44,558 nucleotides of DNA from a virus (Duplodnaviria; Heunggongvirae; Uroviricota; Caudoviricetes), in the IMG/VR virus record IMGVR_UViG_2541047901_000009; one strand, 5' to 3'. The first letter of the stretch is position 1, and each line of letters opens with the position of its first letter. The notes beneath the pieces were generated by a model. It had not been told where the DNA came from and made no database searches. It saw only the letters and a list, made by a program, of their open reading frames with translations. A program made the position numbers and the translations under genes. Below, one piece after another: positions 8,129-15,987 of this stretch.

Positions 8129-10576
8129 TTAACCGTCATGCATCATGCTGGCACGGGCGCGCGCACGTTTATCCCGCTCGTATTTTTCGAGCGCATCCTG
8201 TAACTGGCGGTCAAGCTGTGTCCCCGGCGCAGTACCACCCGTCAGGCTGATGTGATATTCGTTTTTACTCTGGTCCACATAAGAGCGGCCAGCCGGTGCC
8301 GTGACCGGCTGATAAGCTTGATAGCCTGCATAAGAGCTGGTCGCCGGAATATAACCACCGGTGCCATACGTGGCGGCATGAGTTCTGGCGGCGGTCTGGT
8401 CAAGTGTGTCTGACTCTTTGTTGATGACCCCGAGCTTTTCCAGTACCCAGTCAATGCCGCTGCGCAGTTTGTTGAACGCATTAAGCGGCAGCATCAGCGC
8501 GTCAGCCAGTGCCTGCCCGAACATGACGCCCGTGTCACGGCAACGGTTCAGGGTGTCCTGTGTGGCTTTGACCGGGGCAATCAGGTTTTTAAACCACTGC
8601 CACGCGGCCTGTAACTTTTCGCCCAGCCAGTCAAACACCGGCTTAAGTGGCGTGAACAGTTCCCCCACCGGCGCAAATGCCGCTTTCAGCCCTTCCACCA
8701 CACCGCCAAAGAATGCGCTGACAGGCTCCCAGTATTTACGGATAAGCAACGCACCGGCGACAATGGCGGCCACCACGGCCACAACCGGCCAGCTAATCGC
8801 CCCGATGGCCGTCATAACAGCACTGCCAACCGTCGTGAAGATTGCCCCCATTGCGCCTGCTGCCGCGATGATGGCATTGATGCCAGTGATAACCGGCCAG
8901 GCTACGAGGCCAATGGCACCGATGACAGCAGTCAGCGCCAGTGCACCACCGACAATGAGGCCGATGGTTGACGCCAGTGATTTGTTTTTCTGGATCCAGC
9001 CGTCGAGTTTTAACACATACTTTGTGGCCGTCTGCGTGAGCTTACGCAGTGCGCCTTCCTGCTGGTCAAACAGGTCAGTCCCCACCGCCTCATAAGCGGA
9101 CTGAAACTCCTTAAAGTCACCGCCGAGGTTGTCCTGCATGATATTTACCAGCTCGGCGGTCTTCCCGTCTGAGGCTTTAAACGCAGCGGTCAGTTTGTCC
9201 AGCTTTCCAGTTGAGGCGGCAGTCATCAGCACGGCGGCGGCTGAGCTGGCCTCCTCCCCGAAAATAGTTTTCATGTATTCAGCCTGCTGGGCAGTACCGA
9301 GCCGGTTTTTCTCAAAACTGGCCTGCATTTCTTTCAGAATGGTAAATACTGGTCGAGTATTCCCTTTACTGTCTGAGGTTTTCACGCCAAGCTCTTTCAG
9401 TGCATCCCATGCTTTTCCCGTCGGTGCCTGCAGGCGGCTTAACACGGCACGGCTTCCCGTCCCCGCCATTGAACCGGTAATTTTTGCATCATGCAGCGCC
9501 CCGACCATTGCGGCGGTTTCTTCAATGCTGACACCAGCATTTTTTGCCACAGGTGCGGCATAGGTCAGCGCATCGCTCATGCCATCAAAATCGGCGGCGG
9601 TTTTGTTCATCGTCATGGAGAGAACATCCCCGATATGAGCGACCTTATCGTTTGAAAGCTGAAAGGCGGATTTCATCCCCATCAGCAGGGCGGCGTTTTC
9701 TTCCATCGTGCGACGGTTCGCCAGCGCCATATTCAGCGTGACCGGCGTTGCCGCCTGAATGGCATCAACATCCCCACCGGCTTTCGCAATAATAATCTGC
9801 GCACCGGCTGCATCATCTGCCGAGGCTGCGGTATTGTCGCCGAGCTGGCGCGCCTGCTTGCGTAGTGCAGCCATTTCGGCGGAGTCTTTTGCCACACCGA
9901 GCACAGCCTGCAATTCTGAGTTTTTCTGCGCAAACTCATAACCGGGCATCAGCAACTTAACTCCGGCCATCGTTCCCGCAGCAGCAATCCCCACACCGGC
10001 AGCGCCCACTGAGGCCATATTTCCGGCCAGTTCCTTTCCGGCCTGATAACGCTGTTTTACTGCGTTAAGTTTTGCCTGTTGTGCACTGACACGCGCCAGC
10101 GCGTCACGCTGACGGTTAAGCTGTGCGGTGGTTTCACTGATACGGTTTTTCAGTCCCTGCTCATCATGTGCAAGATTGCGGGTATTAATTCCCACAGCGG
10201 CCAGTTCCCGCTGCTGGCGTTTAATGGAATCTGTCAGGCGGTTATATTTCGCCTGTAAGTCCTCCGCCGCACGCTTTGCGGATTCCAGCACTTTCGCCTG
10301 AGCACGGGTCGGACGTTCAGTGTTTTTAAACTGTGTGGCAAGGGCTTCGGCTTCCTGCCGTGCCTTTTCAAGTGCATGACCAGTCACGGCAAGCTGTGCG
10401 CTGGTCTTGCGAAATCCCTCAATACGGGATGCGTGACCGTTCAGCTCGCGCAGTGATTTTTGTGTTTCCCGGATATCCCCCGACAGCGACTTACTCGCTG
10501 TGCGGATGGATTTAAACGGGCGGGATGCCTGGTCAACAGCCCTGAGCAATACCTGTAATTTTACATTGTTACTCAT
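8129..10576 (-). CDS. T: P2 gpT tail tape measure protein
   Basis: 815 aa, Ala/Gly-rich with coiled-coil and hydrophobic segments, located after E/E'. Confidence 0.9.
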   Translation of the reverse strand: MSNNVKLQVLLRAVDQASRPFKSIRTASKSLSGDIRETQKSLRELNGHASRIEGFRKTSAQLAVTGHALEKARQEAEALATQFKNTERPTRAQAKVLESAKRAAEDLQAKYNRLTDSIKRQQRELAAVGINTRNLAHDEQGLKNRISETTAQLNRQRDALARVSAQQAKLNAVKQRYQAGKELAGNMASVGAAGVGIAAAGTMAGVKLLMPGYEFAQKNSELQAVLGVAKDSAEMAALRKQARQLGDNTAASADDAAGAQIIIAKAGGDVDAIQAATPVTLNMALANRRTMEENAALLMGMKSAFQLSNDKVAHIGDVLSMTMNKTAADFDGMSDALTYAAPVAKNAGVSIEETAAMVGALHDAKITGSMAGTGSRAVLSRLQAPTGKAWDALKELGVKTSDSKGNTRPVFTILKEMQASFEKNRLGTAQQAEYMKTIFGEEASSAAAVLMTAASTGKLDKLTAAFKASDGKTAELVNIMQDNLGGDFKEFQSAYEAVGTDLFDQQEGALRKLTQTATKYVLKLDGWIQKNKSLASTIGLIVGGALALTAVIGAIGLVAWPVITGINAIIAAAGAMGAIFTTVGSAVMTAIGAISWPVVAVVAAIVAGALLIRKYWEPVSAFFGGVVEGLKAAFAPVGELFTPLKPVFDWLGEKLQAAWQWFKNLIAPVKATQDTLNRCRDTGVMFGQALADALMLPLNAFNKLRSGIDWVLEKLGVINKESDTLDQTAARTHAATYGTGGYIPATSSYAGYQAYQPVTAPAGRSYVDQSKNEYHISLTGGTAPGTQLDRQLQDALEKYERDKRARARASMMHDG

Positions 10577-11583: not shown

Positions 11584-12774
11584 TTAATTGCTGTTAACCG
11601 AGGTGACCAGATTTGCCAGGTATTTATCGGTAATACGCTGGCGCAGGGTCAGGTTTTCAAGAGGAGGCACCGGTGTATAGTCGTAGTCGATATACAGTTT
11701 TCCGGCCTTGAGGGTTTCCGCATCGTTGGATTCTTCGCTGAACCAGCAGGTCGCATCCACGATATAGCCGTTTGTTTTCAGCTCACGGAATTTGGCATTG
11801 ATGCCGTCAACGATGTCGCGAATCAGCGTTGCGGTGATGGGCTTGTCCACCGCCCACATGTGCGCCTCAGCCATCGTGTCGGCCATCACCTGCGCGGTGC
11901 GGGTGTAGTTTTCAAAGAGGAACAGCGGGTCATCAGAGCAGGTACGGTTACCCCAGAATCGGAAACCGTCGCGGCGAATCAGCGTAGTGACGCCTGACTC
12001 GTTAAGCAGGTCAGCATCGGTGCCGGACTCCTGCAAATCCCAGAATACAGATGCGCTGATGCCGGTAACACCGTTTACCCCGACGTTGGACAGCGTTTTA
12101 TGCCAGCCCTGCTCCTGGTCGATTTTAGCGCGCAGACCCAGCGCACGGGCGGTGGCATACGCGGTGGCGGTGGTACTGGTGACCGTATCCCATGCGAGGA
12201 AATCCGGCCAGATGACCATCAGCTCACGCTGGCTGAAATTCTGGCGGTAGGCTTTCACCTCGGAAATGGTCTTACAGCCCCATGCGCTGATATATCCGAA
12301 AGCGCGCAGCTTCTGACAGACGGATGCCAGTGCAACAGCCACCTCTTTGGTATCCAGTCCCGGCACACCGAGAATACGCGGTTTAACACCGGTTACCGAC
12401 TCCGCCGCCAGCAGGGCTTTTAGTCCGGTGTACTGACCGTTTTCGTCGGTGGTGCCGATGATATTGGAAACGGTCTGCGCGAGTTTCGTTTCCTCGTCAT
12501 CACCGGTGCCGTCTTCCACGCGCACGACAACGGTGACCGGTTTTGACTGGTCAGCGATGGCCTGCAACGATGCCGCCAGCGTGCCTTTTTTACCGGCCTT
12601 TGCAATTGCGCTTTGCACATTGGTAATCAGCACCGGTTTATTGAGGGGGAAGGTTTCCGCATCCGCATCGCTGGCCGTGCAGACCATGCCGACAATGGCA
12701 GTGGATACGGTGGAAATGACGCGGGTGCCGTCGTTAATCTCCAGCACCTGCACGCCATGATGATAGTCACTCAT
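11584..12774 (-). CDS. FI: P2 gpFI contractile tail sheath protein
   Basis: 396 aa, in the P2 FI position. Confidence 0.9.
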   Translation of the reverse strand: MSDYHHGVQVLEINDGTRVISTVSTAIVGMVCTASDADAETFPLNKPVLITNVQSAIAKAGKKGTLAASLQAIADQSKPVTVVVRVEDGTGDDEETKLAQTVSNIIGTTDENGQYTGLKALLAAESVTGVKPRILGVPGLDTKEVAVALASVCQKLRAFGYISAWGCKTISEVKAYRQNFSQRELMVIWPDFLAWDTVTSTTATAYATARALGLRAKIDQEQGWHKTLSNVGVNGVTGISASVFWDLQESGTDADLLNESGVTTLIRRDGFRFWGNRTCSDDPLFLFENYTRTAQVMADTMAEAHMWAVDKPITATLIRDIVDGINAKFRELKTNGYIVDATCWFSEESNDAETLKAGKLYIDYDYTPVPPLENLTLRQRITDKYLANLVTSVNSN

Positions 12775-12870
12775 CCGTTTAACTCCGTGGTTAATGGGTG
12801 CAACTATTTTCTGTTGTGCAGAGCATAAGACGCTATTTGACCTGGCTGGTCAGTGGATGAAACAACAGAT

Positions 12871-12897
12871 AAAGAAAAGGCGGGCAATTCGCCCGCC
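12871..12897 (-). terminator. Hairpin terminator upstream of FI
   Basis: Perfect stem GGCGGGC-aattc-GCCCGCC at 12879-12897, followed on the minus strand by a T-run (plus-strand AAAGAAAA). Confidence 0.5.
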
Positions 12898-12957
12898 TGT
12901 CCTGATTTGTACTCACTCATTTTCCGCCTGACAATTTACATAGCCCAAATGCTATCA

Positions 12958-12973
12958 AATCTGACAGTCTGCT
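12958..12973. repeat. 16-bp repeat AATCTGACAGTCTGCT, left copy, flanking the Z/fun-locus cargo
   Basis: Its exact reverse complement occurs at 15392-15407, and a 22/25 direct near-copy at 15264-15288. Confidence 0.8.
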
Positions 12974-13104
12974 TTGAGCGAAAAGTGGACATTAGAGTTA
13001 CAAAAGCAAGTTTAAATCATCCAAAATATTACAATGTCCTTATCTATCTGATATCGTTATGATAAAAAGCTCCTGAATATAATCGATAGTAGGTGGTTAT
13101 TTCC

Positions 13105-13482
13105 ATGAAATCAATTTTAGAGGTTTTTACTCAAGGAAATACTAAAGAAAAACTGGCTGTTATCGCCGATCTCACAACCATTGCGGGAATATCGATTGCA
13201 ACTATTATTGCTGGTTTGTTAACCCTAGTTGCAAAAACAGATAAACTAGATGTTGGAAATCTGTTTGGAGTTGTCATAATATCTCTGCTCGGATTGGCTG
13301 GTGTTTGCTGTTTTGTGGCCTTATTTATTTGGGTTATAACCCAAATGTCTAAACCATGGGGAACACCTCGGGGGGTTCAGCCCTTAGTTAAGTGTGCTAT
13401 TTCCCTTATCTTTATCTGTATGTTTTTGCTGGCTGTCTTTACATTTTATGAGTTTATTTCTTCGATGAGCATACGCTATTGA
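13105..13482 (+). CDS. Small hydrophobic membrane protein, about 125 aa, 3-4 predicted TM helices; function unknown
   Basis: ORF 13093..13482. Likely ATG at 13105 (MKSILEVF) with AGGTGG eight nt upstream and a TATAAT box at 13078-13083. Strongly hydrophobic and AT-rich. Confidence 0.6.
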   Translation: MKSILEVFTQGNTKEKLAVIADLTTIAGISIATIIAGLLTLVAKTDKLDVGNLFGVVIISLLGLAGVCCFVALFIWVITQMSKPWGTPRGVQPLVKCAISLIFICMFLLAVFTFYEFISSMSIRY

Positions 13483-13504
13483 ATATAAAATCAGCCCCCA
13501 TAAC

Positions 13505-14089
13505 TTAAAAGAGACCTTCTATATCGACTTCAATGCCCAAATAACGGACTGTGCTTTCCAGTTTCTTATGGCCCAACAGAAGTTGGATCCCCCGGAGACT
13601 CTTGGTTTTCTTGTAGATTAAGTAAGGTTTTGTTCTTCTCATGGAATGTGTGCTGTACAGCGAATCTTCGAGACCAAGCTTTTCTACCCACCCATGAAAA
13701 ATTCGGTTGTATTGCCGGGTTGATATATGGTGGTTAGTTCCGACCCGAGAGCGGAACAGGAAGCCTTTACTATGCCAGTTGCCGAGCTTTATCAATGCAG
13801 TAACCGCTTCCCTTGTCCCTTTGGTTATCTCAAATTGGACAGGGCTGCCGGTTTTCTGTTGCAACACCGTTGCTCTGCTTGAGACAGAACTGCCATATGC
13901 AGCATCTGATACTTTGAGTTTGACCAAATCACAGCCCCGTAGCTTAGTGTCCAAAGCCATGTTGAACAGAGCTAGATCGCGTGTTTTACCTTCCAACTCA
14001 AGTCTAATCCGGATCCCCCAGATATGAGATATCTGAAGTGGCCTTTTTTGACCGATGGTACGGTCTTTATTCCACGGTGACGTTTTCAT
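13505..14089 (-). CDS. Small tyrosine site-specific recombinase, about 194 aa, FimB/FimE-like size with catalytic domain only
   Basis: Catalytic signature in order: R (TKLRGCDLVKL), K, HSMRRT (H-x-x-R) and LLGHKKLESTVRY (H...Y). Start taken at the internal ATG (MKTSPWNK) preceded by AGGAG. Confidence 0.7.
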   Translation of the reverse strand: MKTSPWNKDRTIGQKRPLQISHIWGIRIRLELEGKTRDLALFNMALDTKLRGCDLVKLKVSDAAYGSSVSSRATVLQQKTGSPVQFEITKGTREAVTALIKLGNWHSKGFLFRSRVGTNHHISTRQYNRIFHGWVEKLGLEDSLYSTHSMRRTKPYLIYKKTKSLRGIQLLLGHKKLESTVRYLGIEVDIEGLF

Positions 14090-14195
14090 ATTCAAATCTC
14101 CTGCAATGTGGGAGATTTGAGTATGGTTGTCTCTCAAGAGCGAAAATAAGTCAACTATCACTAGTTGTTGCGCATGTACGTATTCTGTCAATTAA

Positions 14196-15038
14196 TTATT
14201 GACAATCATCAATTCTGGAATGATCAAAATCATCATATCGAATTATAGTCTGGTTGACTGTATCTATTGTTGGTGTCATTTCTGTTATAATATCCTGATA
14301 ACCTAAAGAGTTAAATACATTTACTAAGGCCTCACACCGAAGGGCCGTAGCAATTACAAAATTATAAATTGCCAGCCGTTTATTTTCTTGTTTAACTGCA
14401 AGAATGAATTCGATAGCAGTATTTTCATCACTTTGGATTGCATTATATAGAGATACTATATTTACCATATCATCAGAGAATGTATGTATTGAATCACAAA
14501 GAGGAACGTAATGGGCATGATAGTGTGTTTCCCAGCCAATTAATTCAAAAAGTTTTCTGGTTCCTGGATATTCAGGTGTATTTGGCCACAATCTATTAAA
14601 TAGATCAGTTAGTTCTTTTCCCATGCGAATCCTTTCATTTGCTGCTGGATTAGTCATTCCTTTGGATTTTAAACACTCCAGCCACCGTTTTCCATTACTA
14701 TGAACTAATTTCTTACTAGCCTTGAGTAATGCTTGTGCATTTTCGCCATCATCTATTGCTATATAAAATTGATTGGCAGCCTGTTCTATTATAACCCTAG
14801 CTAATACTTCCGATGCTGAAAAGGCTCCTATATTCAAAGAAGAGATAGCCTGATTACTAAGTTCATTCAGTACATTAAAGTACTGTAAGACCATCAATTT
14901 TTGTTCCACACCCTTTAGGTTGTCTATTTTATTTTTATGCTCCTCAAATTTTGCATGGATATATTTATTTATCGCGGCTATTTTTTTTACATCTTCGTCA
15001 AGATCAAACGGGCAACGTCCAAACAATTCTTTTTTCAT
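14196..15038 (-). CDS. Hypothetical protein, 280 aa, cargo gene directly upstream of the recombinase
   Basis: Clean ORF with AGGAGA five nt upstream of the ATG; its stop lies about 105 bp before the recombinase start codon. No recognisable family. AT-rich. Confidence 0.65.
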   Translation of the reverse strand: MKKELFGRCPFDLDEDVKKIAAINKYIHAKFEEHKNKIDNLKGVEQKLMVLQYFNVLNELSNQAISSLNIGAFSASEVLARVIIEQAANQFYIAIDDGENAQALLKASKKLVHSNGKRWLECLKSKGMTNPAANERIRMGKELTDLFNRLWPNTPEYPGTRKLFELIGWETHYHAHYVPLCDSIHTFSDDMVNIVSLYNAIQSDENTAIEFILAVKQENKRLAIYNFVIATALRCEALVNVFNSLGYQDIITEMTPTIDTVNQTIIRYDDFDHSRIDDCQ

Positions 15039-15263
15039 ATATTTCTCCTGTTGTACAAGCTTCCATAAGTTGGCAGATTATACACTGAAGATTACCTATA
15101 AATAGCTGTGCGGGATAGCAGATCAGTGCAAGAAGTACAACCAAGTGAACTGTGCGTATTCAGATACCTGGCCTAACGTTCGCGATAGCCGTCCCCTGCA
15201 CGAAGCCATATATTAGATGTATTAGCTCAGACCTTATCTGACAGGTTGAGTAGGTAGAATCTA

Positions 15264-15288
15264 ATCAAAGCTGACAGTCTGGTTTGGA
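15264..15288. repeat. Direct near-copy (22/25) of the flanking repeat, core CTGACAGTCTG at 15271-15281
   Basis: ATCAAAGCTGACAGTCTGGTTTGGA here against ATCAAATCTGACAGTCTGCTTTGAG at 12955-12979. Confidence 0.7.
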
Positions 15289-15391
15289 CTGTGAGTTCAA
15301 CCGATGGATGCAACACACAGCGATCTACGGACATTACTAGCATAGCTGTGTATTAATCATCGGGAAGCAGGTCAGTCCGCTCCTAGCACAG

Positions 15392-15407
15392 AGCAGACTG
15401 TCAGATT
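15392..15407. repeat. Inverted perfect copy of the 16-bp flanking repeat (AGCAGACTGTCAGATT)
   Basis: Exact reverse complement of 12958-12973. It lies in the loop of a 9-bp stem (AGCACAGAG...CTCTGTGCT, 15385-15424). Confidence 0.8.
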
Positions 15408-15459
15408 AGGCTTTACTCTGTGCTATAGATACGTTAGCTCACTCCAGAGATCATACAAC

Positions 15460-15987
15460 TTATTGCGGCATTTCCGGCCATTCAGGATTTGCAGGATCCA
15501 CACGGCTGACCAGAACACTGTAGCGTTCCCATGCTTCCAGTCGGCTACGCTCATCATCTGTTGCCATATTCAGTCTGACAGAGCGTTCCAGTGGCTGAAT
15601 GATAGTTTCAGCTTCGGAAAGCAAAGCTGACTTCTGTAATTCCGCCAGTTGCAGCTGTTCGTCTGCCGTATAAATCCGCTTAATCACGGCACCATCCTTA
15701 AACATCCATTTACCTGAGTCATCAGCACGTCGGTTGGCGGTAATATCAGGAACCTCGACAACGCTAAAACCTTCAGGGTTGAGCGTTGAAGCATCTCTGG
15801 TGATGCCGACAATTATATTATTCTCATCGTAAACAATCTTTATCGTGTCTTCCTGAAAATTACTTACTTCCTCATACCAGTTTTTTCCCTCTTCGGACCA
15901 TAACCAGATAACATCAAAATTTTTTGTCAGTTGATATTGGGCAACAGTTTTTGGATTACCCGCAGTAATATTTTTTAAATGCTGCAT
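15460..15987 (-). CDS. G: P2 gpG tail fibre assembly protein
   Basis: 175 aa, immediately downstream of H. Confidence 0.88.

Follow-up and report, generated by a model that had tools for sequence, protein, structure and literature searches.

What occupies the gap between the tail genes FI and G of a P2-like prophage, and how is its content exchanged? The question is raised by IMG/VR record IMGVR_UViG_2541047901_000009, a stretch of 44,558 nt from a virus of the Caudoviricetes, the whole of which is called the window below. It contains a P2-like prophage, and at the Z/fun position, between the tail sheath gene FI (11584-12774, minus strand, profile match) and the tail-fibre assembly gene G (15460-15987, minus strand; Caudo_TAP, 1e-33), lies an AT-rich insert of 2.4 kb with a GC content of 0.33-0.48 inside versus 0.52-0.60 outside. 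The insert holds three open reading frames (ORFs), none of them a P2 structural gene: a 125-aa protein with three hydrophobic segments, predicted to be membrane helices (the transmembrane or TM protein; 13105-13482, plus strand), a 194-aa tyrosine recombinase (int; 13505-14089, minus strand) and a 280-aa DUF5677 protein (14196-15038, minus strand). This much had been noticed in a first-pass annotation made from the sequence alone, and it is borne out by the drop in GC, the neighbouring genes, the ORF list and the RefSeq annotation of Escherichia coli S88, which has the same three ORFs (hypothetical protein, 194-aa tyrosine-type recombinase, DUF5677 protein). The further proposal was that the three genes form one module, phase-variable or self-mobilising, and the evidence given below points elsewhere. 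We consider it rather probable that the Z/fun position is a cassette slot bounded by two heterospecific sites, here called A and B, that the slot of the window holds two separate cassettes, that a family of small recombinases acts on such sites and that this particular insert is frozen. Nilsson, Karlsson and Haggard-Ljungquist reportedly described the P2 Z/fun region and its flanking inverted repeats in 2004. The hotspot itself and its repeats are already known, being present in GenBank records of 2003-2004.

The insert is flanked by an inverted repeat (12958-12990 and 15375-15407; 33 nt, 82% identity), with a third, direct copy at 15238-15286. The surrounding stretches, 12745-12984 and 15373-15489, match the annotated left and right inverted repeats in the Z regions of P2-EC58 and P2-EC67 (AJ512683, AJ512685) with identities of 94-95% and 90-92%, and these records hold other cargo. 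The repeats that had been proposed to bound the module are real, and by this comparison they are a property of the P2 Z/fun slot, not of the S88-type cargo. Because homology to P2-EC58 and P2-EC67 ends at 12984 and returns at 15373-15376, the true cargo is 12991-15374; the first-pass extent of 12871-15460 included P2 backbone (12871-12990). The interval between FI and G (12775-15459) is 100% identical to the S88 prophage; of 5426 complete E. coli genomes, 36 contain 80% or more of it and about 1600 additional ones match only its ends.

The core of each repeat is a 24-bp unit composed of a 9-bp arm, a 6-bp spacer and a second 9-bp arm, the arms being near-palindromic (GTCCGCTnT / nnAGCGGAC). 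The B site (12967-12990, plus strand; GTCTGCTTT-GAGCGA-AAAGTGGAC) forms the left slot boundary beside FI, and the A site (15375-15398, minus strand; GTCTGCTCT-GTGCTA-GGAGCGGAC in minus-strand reading) the right boundary beside G, each being the core of one of the annotated Z-region inverted repeats. There are two spacer classes, GAGCGA for B and the GTGCCA type, represented by GTGCTA in the window, for A. When sites are read in the orientation that defines the spacer, the cargo is invariably 3' of the site. Defined by arms plus spacer class, sites occur exactly twice in the window, both times at cargo boundaries, versus 0.013 expected per simulated window and none of 300 simulations with two. 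Arms without spacer class are too loose a definition, yielding 1.5 chance matches per shuffled window. A candidate in the tape-measure gene (9078-9101), in which both 7-bp arm cores match and the spacer is unrelated, was taken as a chance match. In P2 slots with six different cargoes (EC58, a Z/fun-position ORF, HAD plus NUDIX, DUF6650 and others) the outer arm is constant and the inner arm varies with the cargo.

The same sites recur far beyond P2. Exact-pattern scans of IMG/VR gave at least 120 matches for A and for B, and 226 viral loci with 486 class-typed sites were fetched; the arm sequences of seed sites are fixed by the search pattern, and the rules of orientation and spacing are independent of it. 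Neighbouring sites form either cassette pairs (A+..B- 86, B+..A- 56), with a median distance of about 1.5 kb, or junction pairs (B-..A+ 62, A-..B+ 26); in 79 junction pairs the sites are separated by less than 60 nt, the start-to-start distance being 42. Neighbours of the same class and orientation number 28 (A+..A+ 10, B-..B- 9, B+..B+ 7, A-..A- 2), mixed-orientation pairs are seen once each as A-..A+ and B-..B+, and about 12% of adjacent pairs deviate from strict A/B alternation. The grammar is one of A-cassette-B units joined by junctions of about 18 nt. The cassettes themselves are hyperdiverse: 142 of them fall into 102 sequence clusters, 57% have a single gene and the median GC is 38%. 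By marker genes, 36 of the loci have a P2-type backbone, 67 a lambdoid one (Rem, DUF968, DUF977) and 123 another. Known defence genes are often present in these sister cassettes; anti-phage-type cargo includes Old, PD-T7-1, PD-T7-5, DRT/UG17 reverse transcriptases, PDC-S06, PDC-M01A, AbiV, DarT, TIR, GmrSD, RES and AriA-like ATPases, next to HAD hydrolases, LysR regulators and others. Exact A sites are also found in Hyphomicrobiales, Bradyrhizobium, Rhodospirillum, Nitrosospira, Amphritea and Pseudidiomarina. Contigs of Hyphomicrobiales metagenome-assembled genomes (L350, L351, L353, L362) and of Nitrosospira (L295, L296) carry dense arrays of same-arm sites in a single orientation, a grammar unlike the inverted A/B pairs of enterobacterial phages. 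The density reaches 17 sites per 9.6 kb, and some of the Hyphomicrobiales contigs have 16-17 within ~9 kb. In these arrays a third spacer class, GGGTCA, alternates with GTGCCA at a spacing of 45-91 nt.

The position of exchange was mapped by pairwise comparison of 436 distinct site instances with the cargo placed on the right. Pairs with the same flank and unrelated cargo (460 for A, 471 for B) are at least 90% identical across outer arm and spacer; identity falls to about 44% over the first two positions of the inner arm and is at background from there on. Pairs with the same cargo and unrelated flanks (13 for A, 26 for B) show the mirror image, including one variable outer-arm position. The switch in homology is limited to ~7 bp between variable arm positions in both site classes, as predicted by strand exchange of a tyrosine recombinase, while homologous recombination over 24 bp predicts otherwise. 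Six cassette clusters are each present in two unrelated backbones, and both of their ends switch within sites, as in the P2 slot L120 compared with the non-P2 backbone L187. It is on these grounds that we regard as unlikely an exchange by homologous recombination (RecA or phage Red/RecET-type) through the 24-bp palindromes and their flanks, in which the palindromes would serve mainly as RNA or DNA hairpins (terminators, insulators) and int would be an unrelated passenger. In its favour, the arms can form a GC-rich hairpin of 7-9 bp, int is not near most slots, and a 2026 preprint on defence turnover in P2/P4 raises homologous recombination in its discussion only, as limited by low P2-P4 identity, and names no site-specific sites at hotspots. 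The narrowness of the exchange point at both site classes argues against this explanation, as does the passage of cassettes between backbones that share no flanking homology. Moreover, tyrosine-recombinase core sites typically have such a 9-6-9 layout with class-specific spacers, and int genes lie at fixed distances between sites across 54-97% identity.

The latter association makes int the candidate enzyme for exchange between A/B sites. The window protein matches PF00589 (62.3 bits versus a cut-off of 27.1, E = 6e-17), contains the catalytic domain only, as had been noticed, and belongs to a mobile-cassette family. All catalytic residues (R51, K79, H148, R151, H174, Y183) are present; in an alignment with 10 homologues, H148 is nearly invariant and the other five are invariant. 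The description of the protein as FimB/E-like is not supported. FimB/FimE-type invertases, proteins of about 200 aa with little more than a catalytic domain, recombine short (9-bp) repeats, whereas int is not a member by sequence (model NF007371, 20 bits versus a cut-off of 222), the full-length copies among the E. coli matches listed are collinear and the sites flanking the insert have unlike spacers. It does not belong to the integron integrases either (NF011946, 17.4 bits versus 435; TIGR02249, 17.5 bits versus 265). The best similarity, though weak, is to Xer-type models, and a phmmer search of the family against PDB sequences gave no match. The family is highly conserved and comprises thousands of relatives of ~200 aa, with 75-92% identity across Proteus, Providencia, Pantoea, Pectobacterium, Idiomarina and Cycloclasticus, and is present in 869 of the 5426 complete E. 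coli genomes, including strains 042, CFT073, ATCC 25922 and 83972. In genomic islands and integrative and conjugative elements (ICEs), int is the 3'-terminal gene of cargo blocks, for example a LysR/oxidoreductase/glutathione (GSH)-peroxidase set or an ars operon.

Members of the family are closely tied to the sites. An A-type site (A*) follows the int stop codon by 25-29 nt in 29 of 29 loci (at least 81% identity, int 3' end preserved) and in L385 as well. A* reads CAGGGCTG-N5-CAGCCCT-GTGCCA-nnAGCGGAC, with a hairpin in place of the outer arm. A B-type site (B*) is located ~40 nt upstream of the int ATG in phage contexts. With A* downstream and B* upstream, the int gene occupies a cassette junction, as is apparent in E. 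coli 042, where the order is B, cassette, A*-int-B*, cassette, A-B, cassette, A. One and the same int cassette is present in loci L004 and L007, each time at another target; in both, the left site joins the outer arm of the target to the inner arm of the cassette, and the right site joins the A* hairpin to the inner arm of the target, which appears to be the form expected of attL and attR. Distant int homologues (54-62% identity) are also followed by same-arm sites, with the spacer TGACCC or CGACCC. From these associations we infer that the int family is the cognate enzyme of the A/B sites. In the window, B* (14129-14152, plus strand; GTCTCTCAA-GAGCGA-AAATAAGTC) is the point where homology to other int copies stops, and its inner arm is degenerate; intact counterparts are found in L028 and L051 (GTCCCTTAT-GAGCGA-GGAGTGGAC). 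The Shine-Dalgarno sequence and ATG of int are covered by a predicted hairpin (14086-14126, minus strand) of 15 pairs, three of which show compensatory changes in eight family members, suggesting translational silencing of read-through transcripts, like in some transposase genes.

Could the sites be real and be used by a different enzyme, of the host or of another element, with the 200-aa int having merely colonised the junctions? Such an enzyme would account for the absence of int from 84% of complete E. coli genomes and from 222 of the 226 site-bearing viral loci, as well as for the exact A site in very distant taxa. Yet int is the only recombinase seen at a constant distance from the sites, distant int homologues retain adjacent same-arm sites, and the hybrid arms of the int cassettes in L004 and L007 fit self-integration. 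We rate this possibility as quite improbable and retain int as the putative recombinase of the A/B sites.

The insert of the window is itself divisible into cassettes. Its left part, 12967-13523, is 96-100% identical to cassettes of E. coli CD306 (L015, beside a DUF6650 cassette) and MSI001 (L016, alone), in which neither int nor DUF5677 is present at the locus. In CD306, the Z slot of the P2-like prophage (L015, 3080-4881) has tandem cassettes in the order B, DUF6650, A-B, TM, A; the G gene beside this slot is interrupted by an IS21-family element. The right part, the DUF5677-int block, is found with 87-90% identity in Qin-like lambdoid prophages, located between the replication gene P and hokD-rem and lacking the TM gene. 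These lambdoid copies retain A* and the canonical 3' end of int; their int has an internal deletion and a frameshift, and their DUF5677 is intact. Judged from these distributions, the TM and DUF5677 cassettes are separable and are two independent cassettes, and the comparison of P2 and lambdoid prophages does not support a single three-gene module.

The boundary between the two parts is a deletion junction. The TM cassette of the window (12991-13523, plus strand) has one gene with its own terminator and has lost its right part. In L015 and L016 the full terminator hairpin, AAAAGAGACCT-TCTATA-AGGTCTCTTTT, is followed by ~323 nt and then by the A site, whereas in the window only the left half and the loop of the hairpin are left (AAAAGAGACCT-TCTATA; 13507-13523, plus strand). 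At the junction, 13523/13524, the hairpin is cut after the loop and int sequence starts. The segment of int after the catalytic tyrosine is consequently not intact: DDALEISESIEV is replaced after GIEVD by IEGLF and a stop codon, so that the invariant family tail GIEVD-DALEISESIEV reads GIEVD-IEGLF in the window, the last residues being read from the TM terminator. Eleven conserved C-terminal codons are lost, and five further private substitutions affect otherwise conserved columns. The simplest history would start from an ancestral array B, TM, A*-int-B*, DUF5677, A, in which a deletion from the TM terminator loop to int codon 189 would have taken the int tail together with A*. In other tyrosine recombinases (Cre, XerD, lambda Int) the residues beyond the catalytic tyrosine touch the neighbouring subunit and control catalysis. 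The int of the window is likely inactive, because its C-terminal tail is lost and because of the five private substitutions. Of its flanking sites, A* is deleted and B* is kept in a degenerate form, the inner arm of this site between DUF5677 and int being degenerate in P2 and lambdoid contexts alike. With int tail and A* deleted and this site degenerate, the insert is most likely a frozen remnant inherited with the prophage, and the idea that it is currently self-mobilising is not supported. No P2-type copy with an intact int is among the E. coli matches listed, and the undeleted intermediate (full-length int, A* and the 323 nt by the TM gene) had no dedicated search.

The division into cassettes also bears on the very unlikely alternative that DUF5677 and the recombinase-like protein constitute a two-gene anti-phage system, with int serving as effector or sensor and the TM protein joining as third component. 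In its favour, DUF5677 and int lie side by side in the same orientation, whether in P2 or in lambdoid prophages, the slot is rich in defence genes and, according to a preprint, DUF5677 is enriched beside serine recombinases in Bacillota. However, a B-type site, albeit degenerate, lies between them, int is a pseudogene in the lambdoid copies next to an intact DUF5677, and members of the int family accompany unrelated cargo (ars operons, LysR/oxidoreductase sets, TIR/HNH proteins). Furthermore, the DUF5677 relatives P0130 and P0127 (42-44% identity) stand alone at lambdoid moron positions, near defence-like genes, and the TM gene travels separately. A phase-variable switch, in which the recombinase would flip the segment between the flanking repeats and turn the cargo on and off, is hardly credible: inverted repeats around the segment and a small catalytic-domain-only recombinase inside it recall the fim switch, but the protein fails the FimB/E-family model and is truncated, the same repeats flank slots without a recombinase, inversion is not expected since the end sites have unlike spacers (GAGCGA versus GTGCTA), and 30 of 30 full-length copies among the E. 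coli matches listed are collinear, in one orientation, in their assemblies.

Returning to the cassette slot, we propose that the ~200-aa int family would catalyse strand exchange within the 6-bp spacers, with two outcomes. Cassettes that carry int could integrate and excise at A sites, and cargo could be replaced in a two-site reaction between any elements that have an A/B slot, amounting to a natural form of recombinase-mediated cassette exchange (RMCE). Several points weigh against this proposal and against a defensive role of the cargo. Exact arm patterns served as seeds for the site sample, and the pairs from which breakpoints were mapped do not represent independent events. The lambdoid DUF5677 cassette stops at exactly the nucleotide where the window copy does and has no A site after it, which means that not every junction is a spacer crossover. 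Int is present in only 16% of complete E. coli genomes and lies inside the fetched flanks of only four of the 226 site-bearing viral loci; given this scarcity, the enzyme would need to act in trans and rarely, or another enzyme uses the sites. PADLOC-DB v2 profiles assign the three insert proteins to none of its families at E <= 0.1. A fold search with DUF5677 retrieved generic helical bundles only and no informative structural neighbour. Finally, a Bacillota DUF5677 gene, picked for testing because of the enrichment beside serine recombinases, gave no protection against six Enterococcus phages. The lambdoid cassette end lies at 6741-6750 of L403 (E. coli 19AR0254) and corresponds to 15374/15375 of the window; the DUF1627 gene adjacent to it is truncated.

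What the two cargo genes do can be approached mainly through their company. Profile searches, which the first-pass annotation had suggested as a check on the three proteins, gave the PF00589 match of int and a DUF5677 match (PF18928, 40.1 bits versus a gathering threshold of 27.1) and nothing in PADLOC; PADLOC, NCBIfam and PHROGs provide no functional name for the TM or the DUF5677 protein, both of which are in PHROGs families of unknown function (phrog_4155 and phrog_4167, respectively). The DUF5677 protein has the conserved motif YHAxY...PLCDSxH..DD. Its subfamily is small, with 52 representative clusters at E <= 0.001, and consists of single-domain proteins of ~280 aa that share the invariant motifs RVIxEQxAN, YHxxY and PLCDSxH..DD; the predicted model is all-alpha and of moderate confidence. 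The TM protein is a typical candidate for membrane-level exclusion. By analogy with the sister cassettes, both may be lysogenic-conversion genes, most likely anti-phage, an assignment that by cassette company only we would put, for each gene, at a little under an even chance.

The DUF5677 cassette has some peculiarities of its own. It contains a degenerate B-like site (15277-15300) next to 49 nt of similarity to the P2 flank of B; together they span 15238-15300 (plus strand) and are conserved in the lambdoid copy. The feature is 77 nt from the A site and resembles an empty slot. The third repeat copy was considered as the attR of cargo flanked by direct repeats, and this idea was dropped because the copy lies inside the DUF5677 cassette of lambdoid prophages as well and has a degenerate inner arm. 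In one lambdoid lineage an IS3-family element is located just upstream of the DUF5677 cassette, beside a truncated prophage integrase (L017, 4483-5696), and draft assemblies often break at this point (contig ends of L018-L021).

How does the A/B cassette system compare with known ones? It resembles integrons, pdif modules and engineered cassette exchange and is a member of none of them. As in integrons, hyperdiverse AT-rich cassettes, most of them with a single gene, form arrays with short sites in between and an associated tyrosine recombinase; anti-phage genes are part of the cargo, and a specialised int-adjacent site (here A*) is used with ordinary ones. Unlike in integrons, int has ~200 aa and no N-terminal domain, and the sites seen are 24-bp duplex-type 9-6-9 palindromes, apparently not folded attC; in addition, enterobacterial A/B cassettes lie between two inverted sites with different spacers, in slots of phages and islands from which int is usually absent. 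The pdif modules of Acinetobacter plasmids are likewise bounded by inverted short sites, arranged in tandem, common to unrelated replicons and mostly devoid of a recombinase gene. Their dif-like sites, however, are attributed to the host XerC/XerD, whereas the A/B sites fall into two spacer classes, and a dedicated gene for a small recombinase lies in junctions. The arms of the A and B sites are presumably unrelated to dif. Engineered RMCE with Cre/Flp and heterospecific lox/FRT sites uses shared arms with incompatible spacers in the same way, and a double crossover replaces the cassette without inversion or deletion; that is a laboratory design, while the A/B arrangement is natural, with an operation proposed from comparative genomics only.

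Within the Z/fun literature, P2 records AJ512683 and AJ512685 have the same FI-G position and the same inverted repeats, with foreign AT-rich cargo that varies between phages. Compared with them, the cargo of the window is new, and what the records annotate appears to be long repeats only; 9-6-9 cores, spacer classes, a candidate recombinase and an array grammar beyond P2 seem to be absent from them. The Z/fun locus or the tail-gene hotspot is treated in recent papers on hotspots, which name neither the sites nor an enzyme; such sites go unmentioned in the pipolin paper, the iLund4u hotspot preprint and the 2026 preprint on P2/P4. In the literature searched, of which coverage was incomplete, neither the sites and their spacer classes nor the int family of the junctions was found to be described. 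A wider and more tentative proposal, which we hold to be slightly less probable than its converse, is that the P2 Z/fun slot, the lambdoid slot (replication genes to hokD-rem) and many island and ICE slots are docking sites of one undescribed cassette-exchange system of Proteobacteria. It would comprise same-arm 24-bp 9-6-9 sites, with GTGCCA/GAGCGA spacers in enterobacterial elements and additionally GGGTCA in Alphaproteobacteria, and a ~200-aa, catalytic-domain-only recombinase resident in cassette junctions and acting in cis or in trans, and it would move anti-phage genes between unrelated elements. Hotspots in prophages and satellites are now a main source of new anti-phage systems, and the clean replacement of cargo at fixed positions has been explained only by invoking recombination in general terms. 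If the sites and the small recombinase work as proposed, the mechanism of turnover can be put to a direct test, the limits of cargo become predictable with single-nucleotide precision, cassettes and with them candidate defence genes can be mined through sites instead of genes, and a compact natural two-site exchange system is at hand as a tool. For the window itself the implication is more modest, namely, two unrelated cargo genes and a crippled recombinase fixed in a prophage lineage of extraintestinal and avian pathogenic E. coli (ExPEC/APEC).

Some other features of the region deserve mention. An Rfam scan of 12500-15700 gave no match. A Rho-independent terminator of the P2 backbone (12878-12898, minus strand; 9-bp stem with seven GC pairs and a T-run) lies outside the slot, upstream of the FI late promoter region, and falls within the stretch 12745-12984 conserved in P2-EC58 and P2-EC67. 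A 10-bp inverted repeat, TAGCACAGAG / CTCTGTGCTA (15384-15425; DNA fold z-score of -2.5), overlaps the A site, and similar partners are also present at the A sites of L004, L007 and L026. The tail fibre gene H of the same prophage follows at 15991-18726 (minus strand). Further along, beside the baseplate gene V, the prophage encodes a RelA/SpoT-domain protein of 359 aa (21298-22377, plus strand; PF04607, 1.8e-21), which matches the PADLOC candidate PDC-S33 (1e-16) and has no flanking A or B site. The gene has the appearance of a second moron, of the CapRel-like type of toxic small alarmone synthetases.

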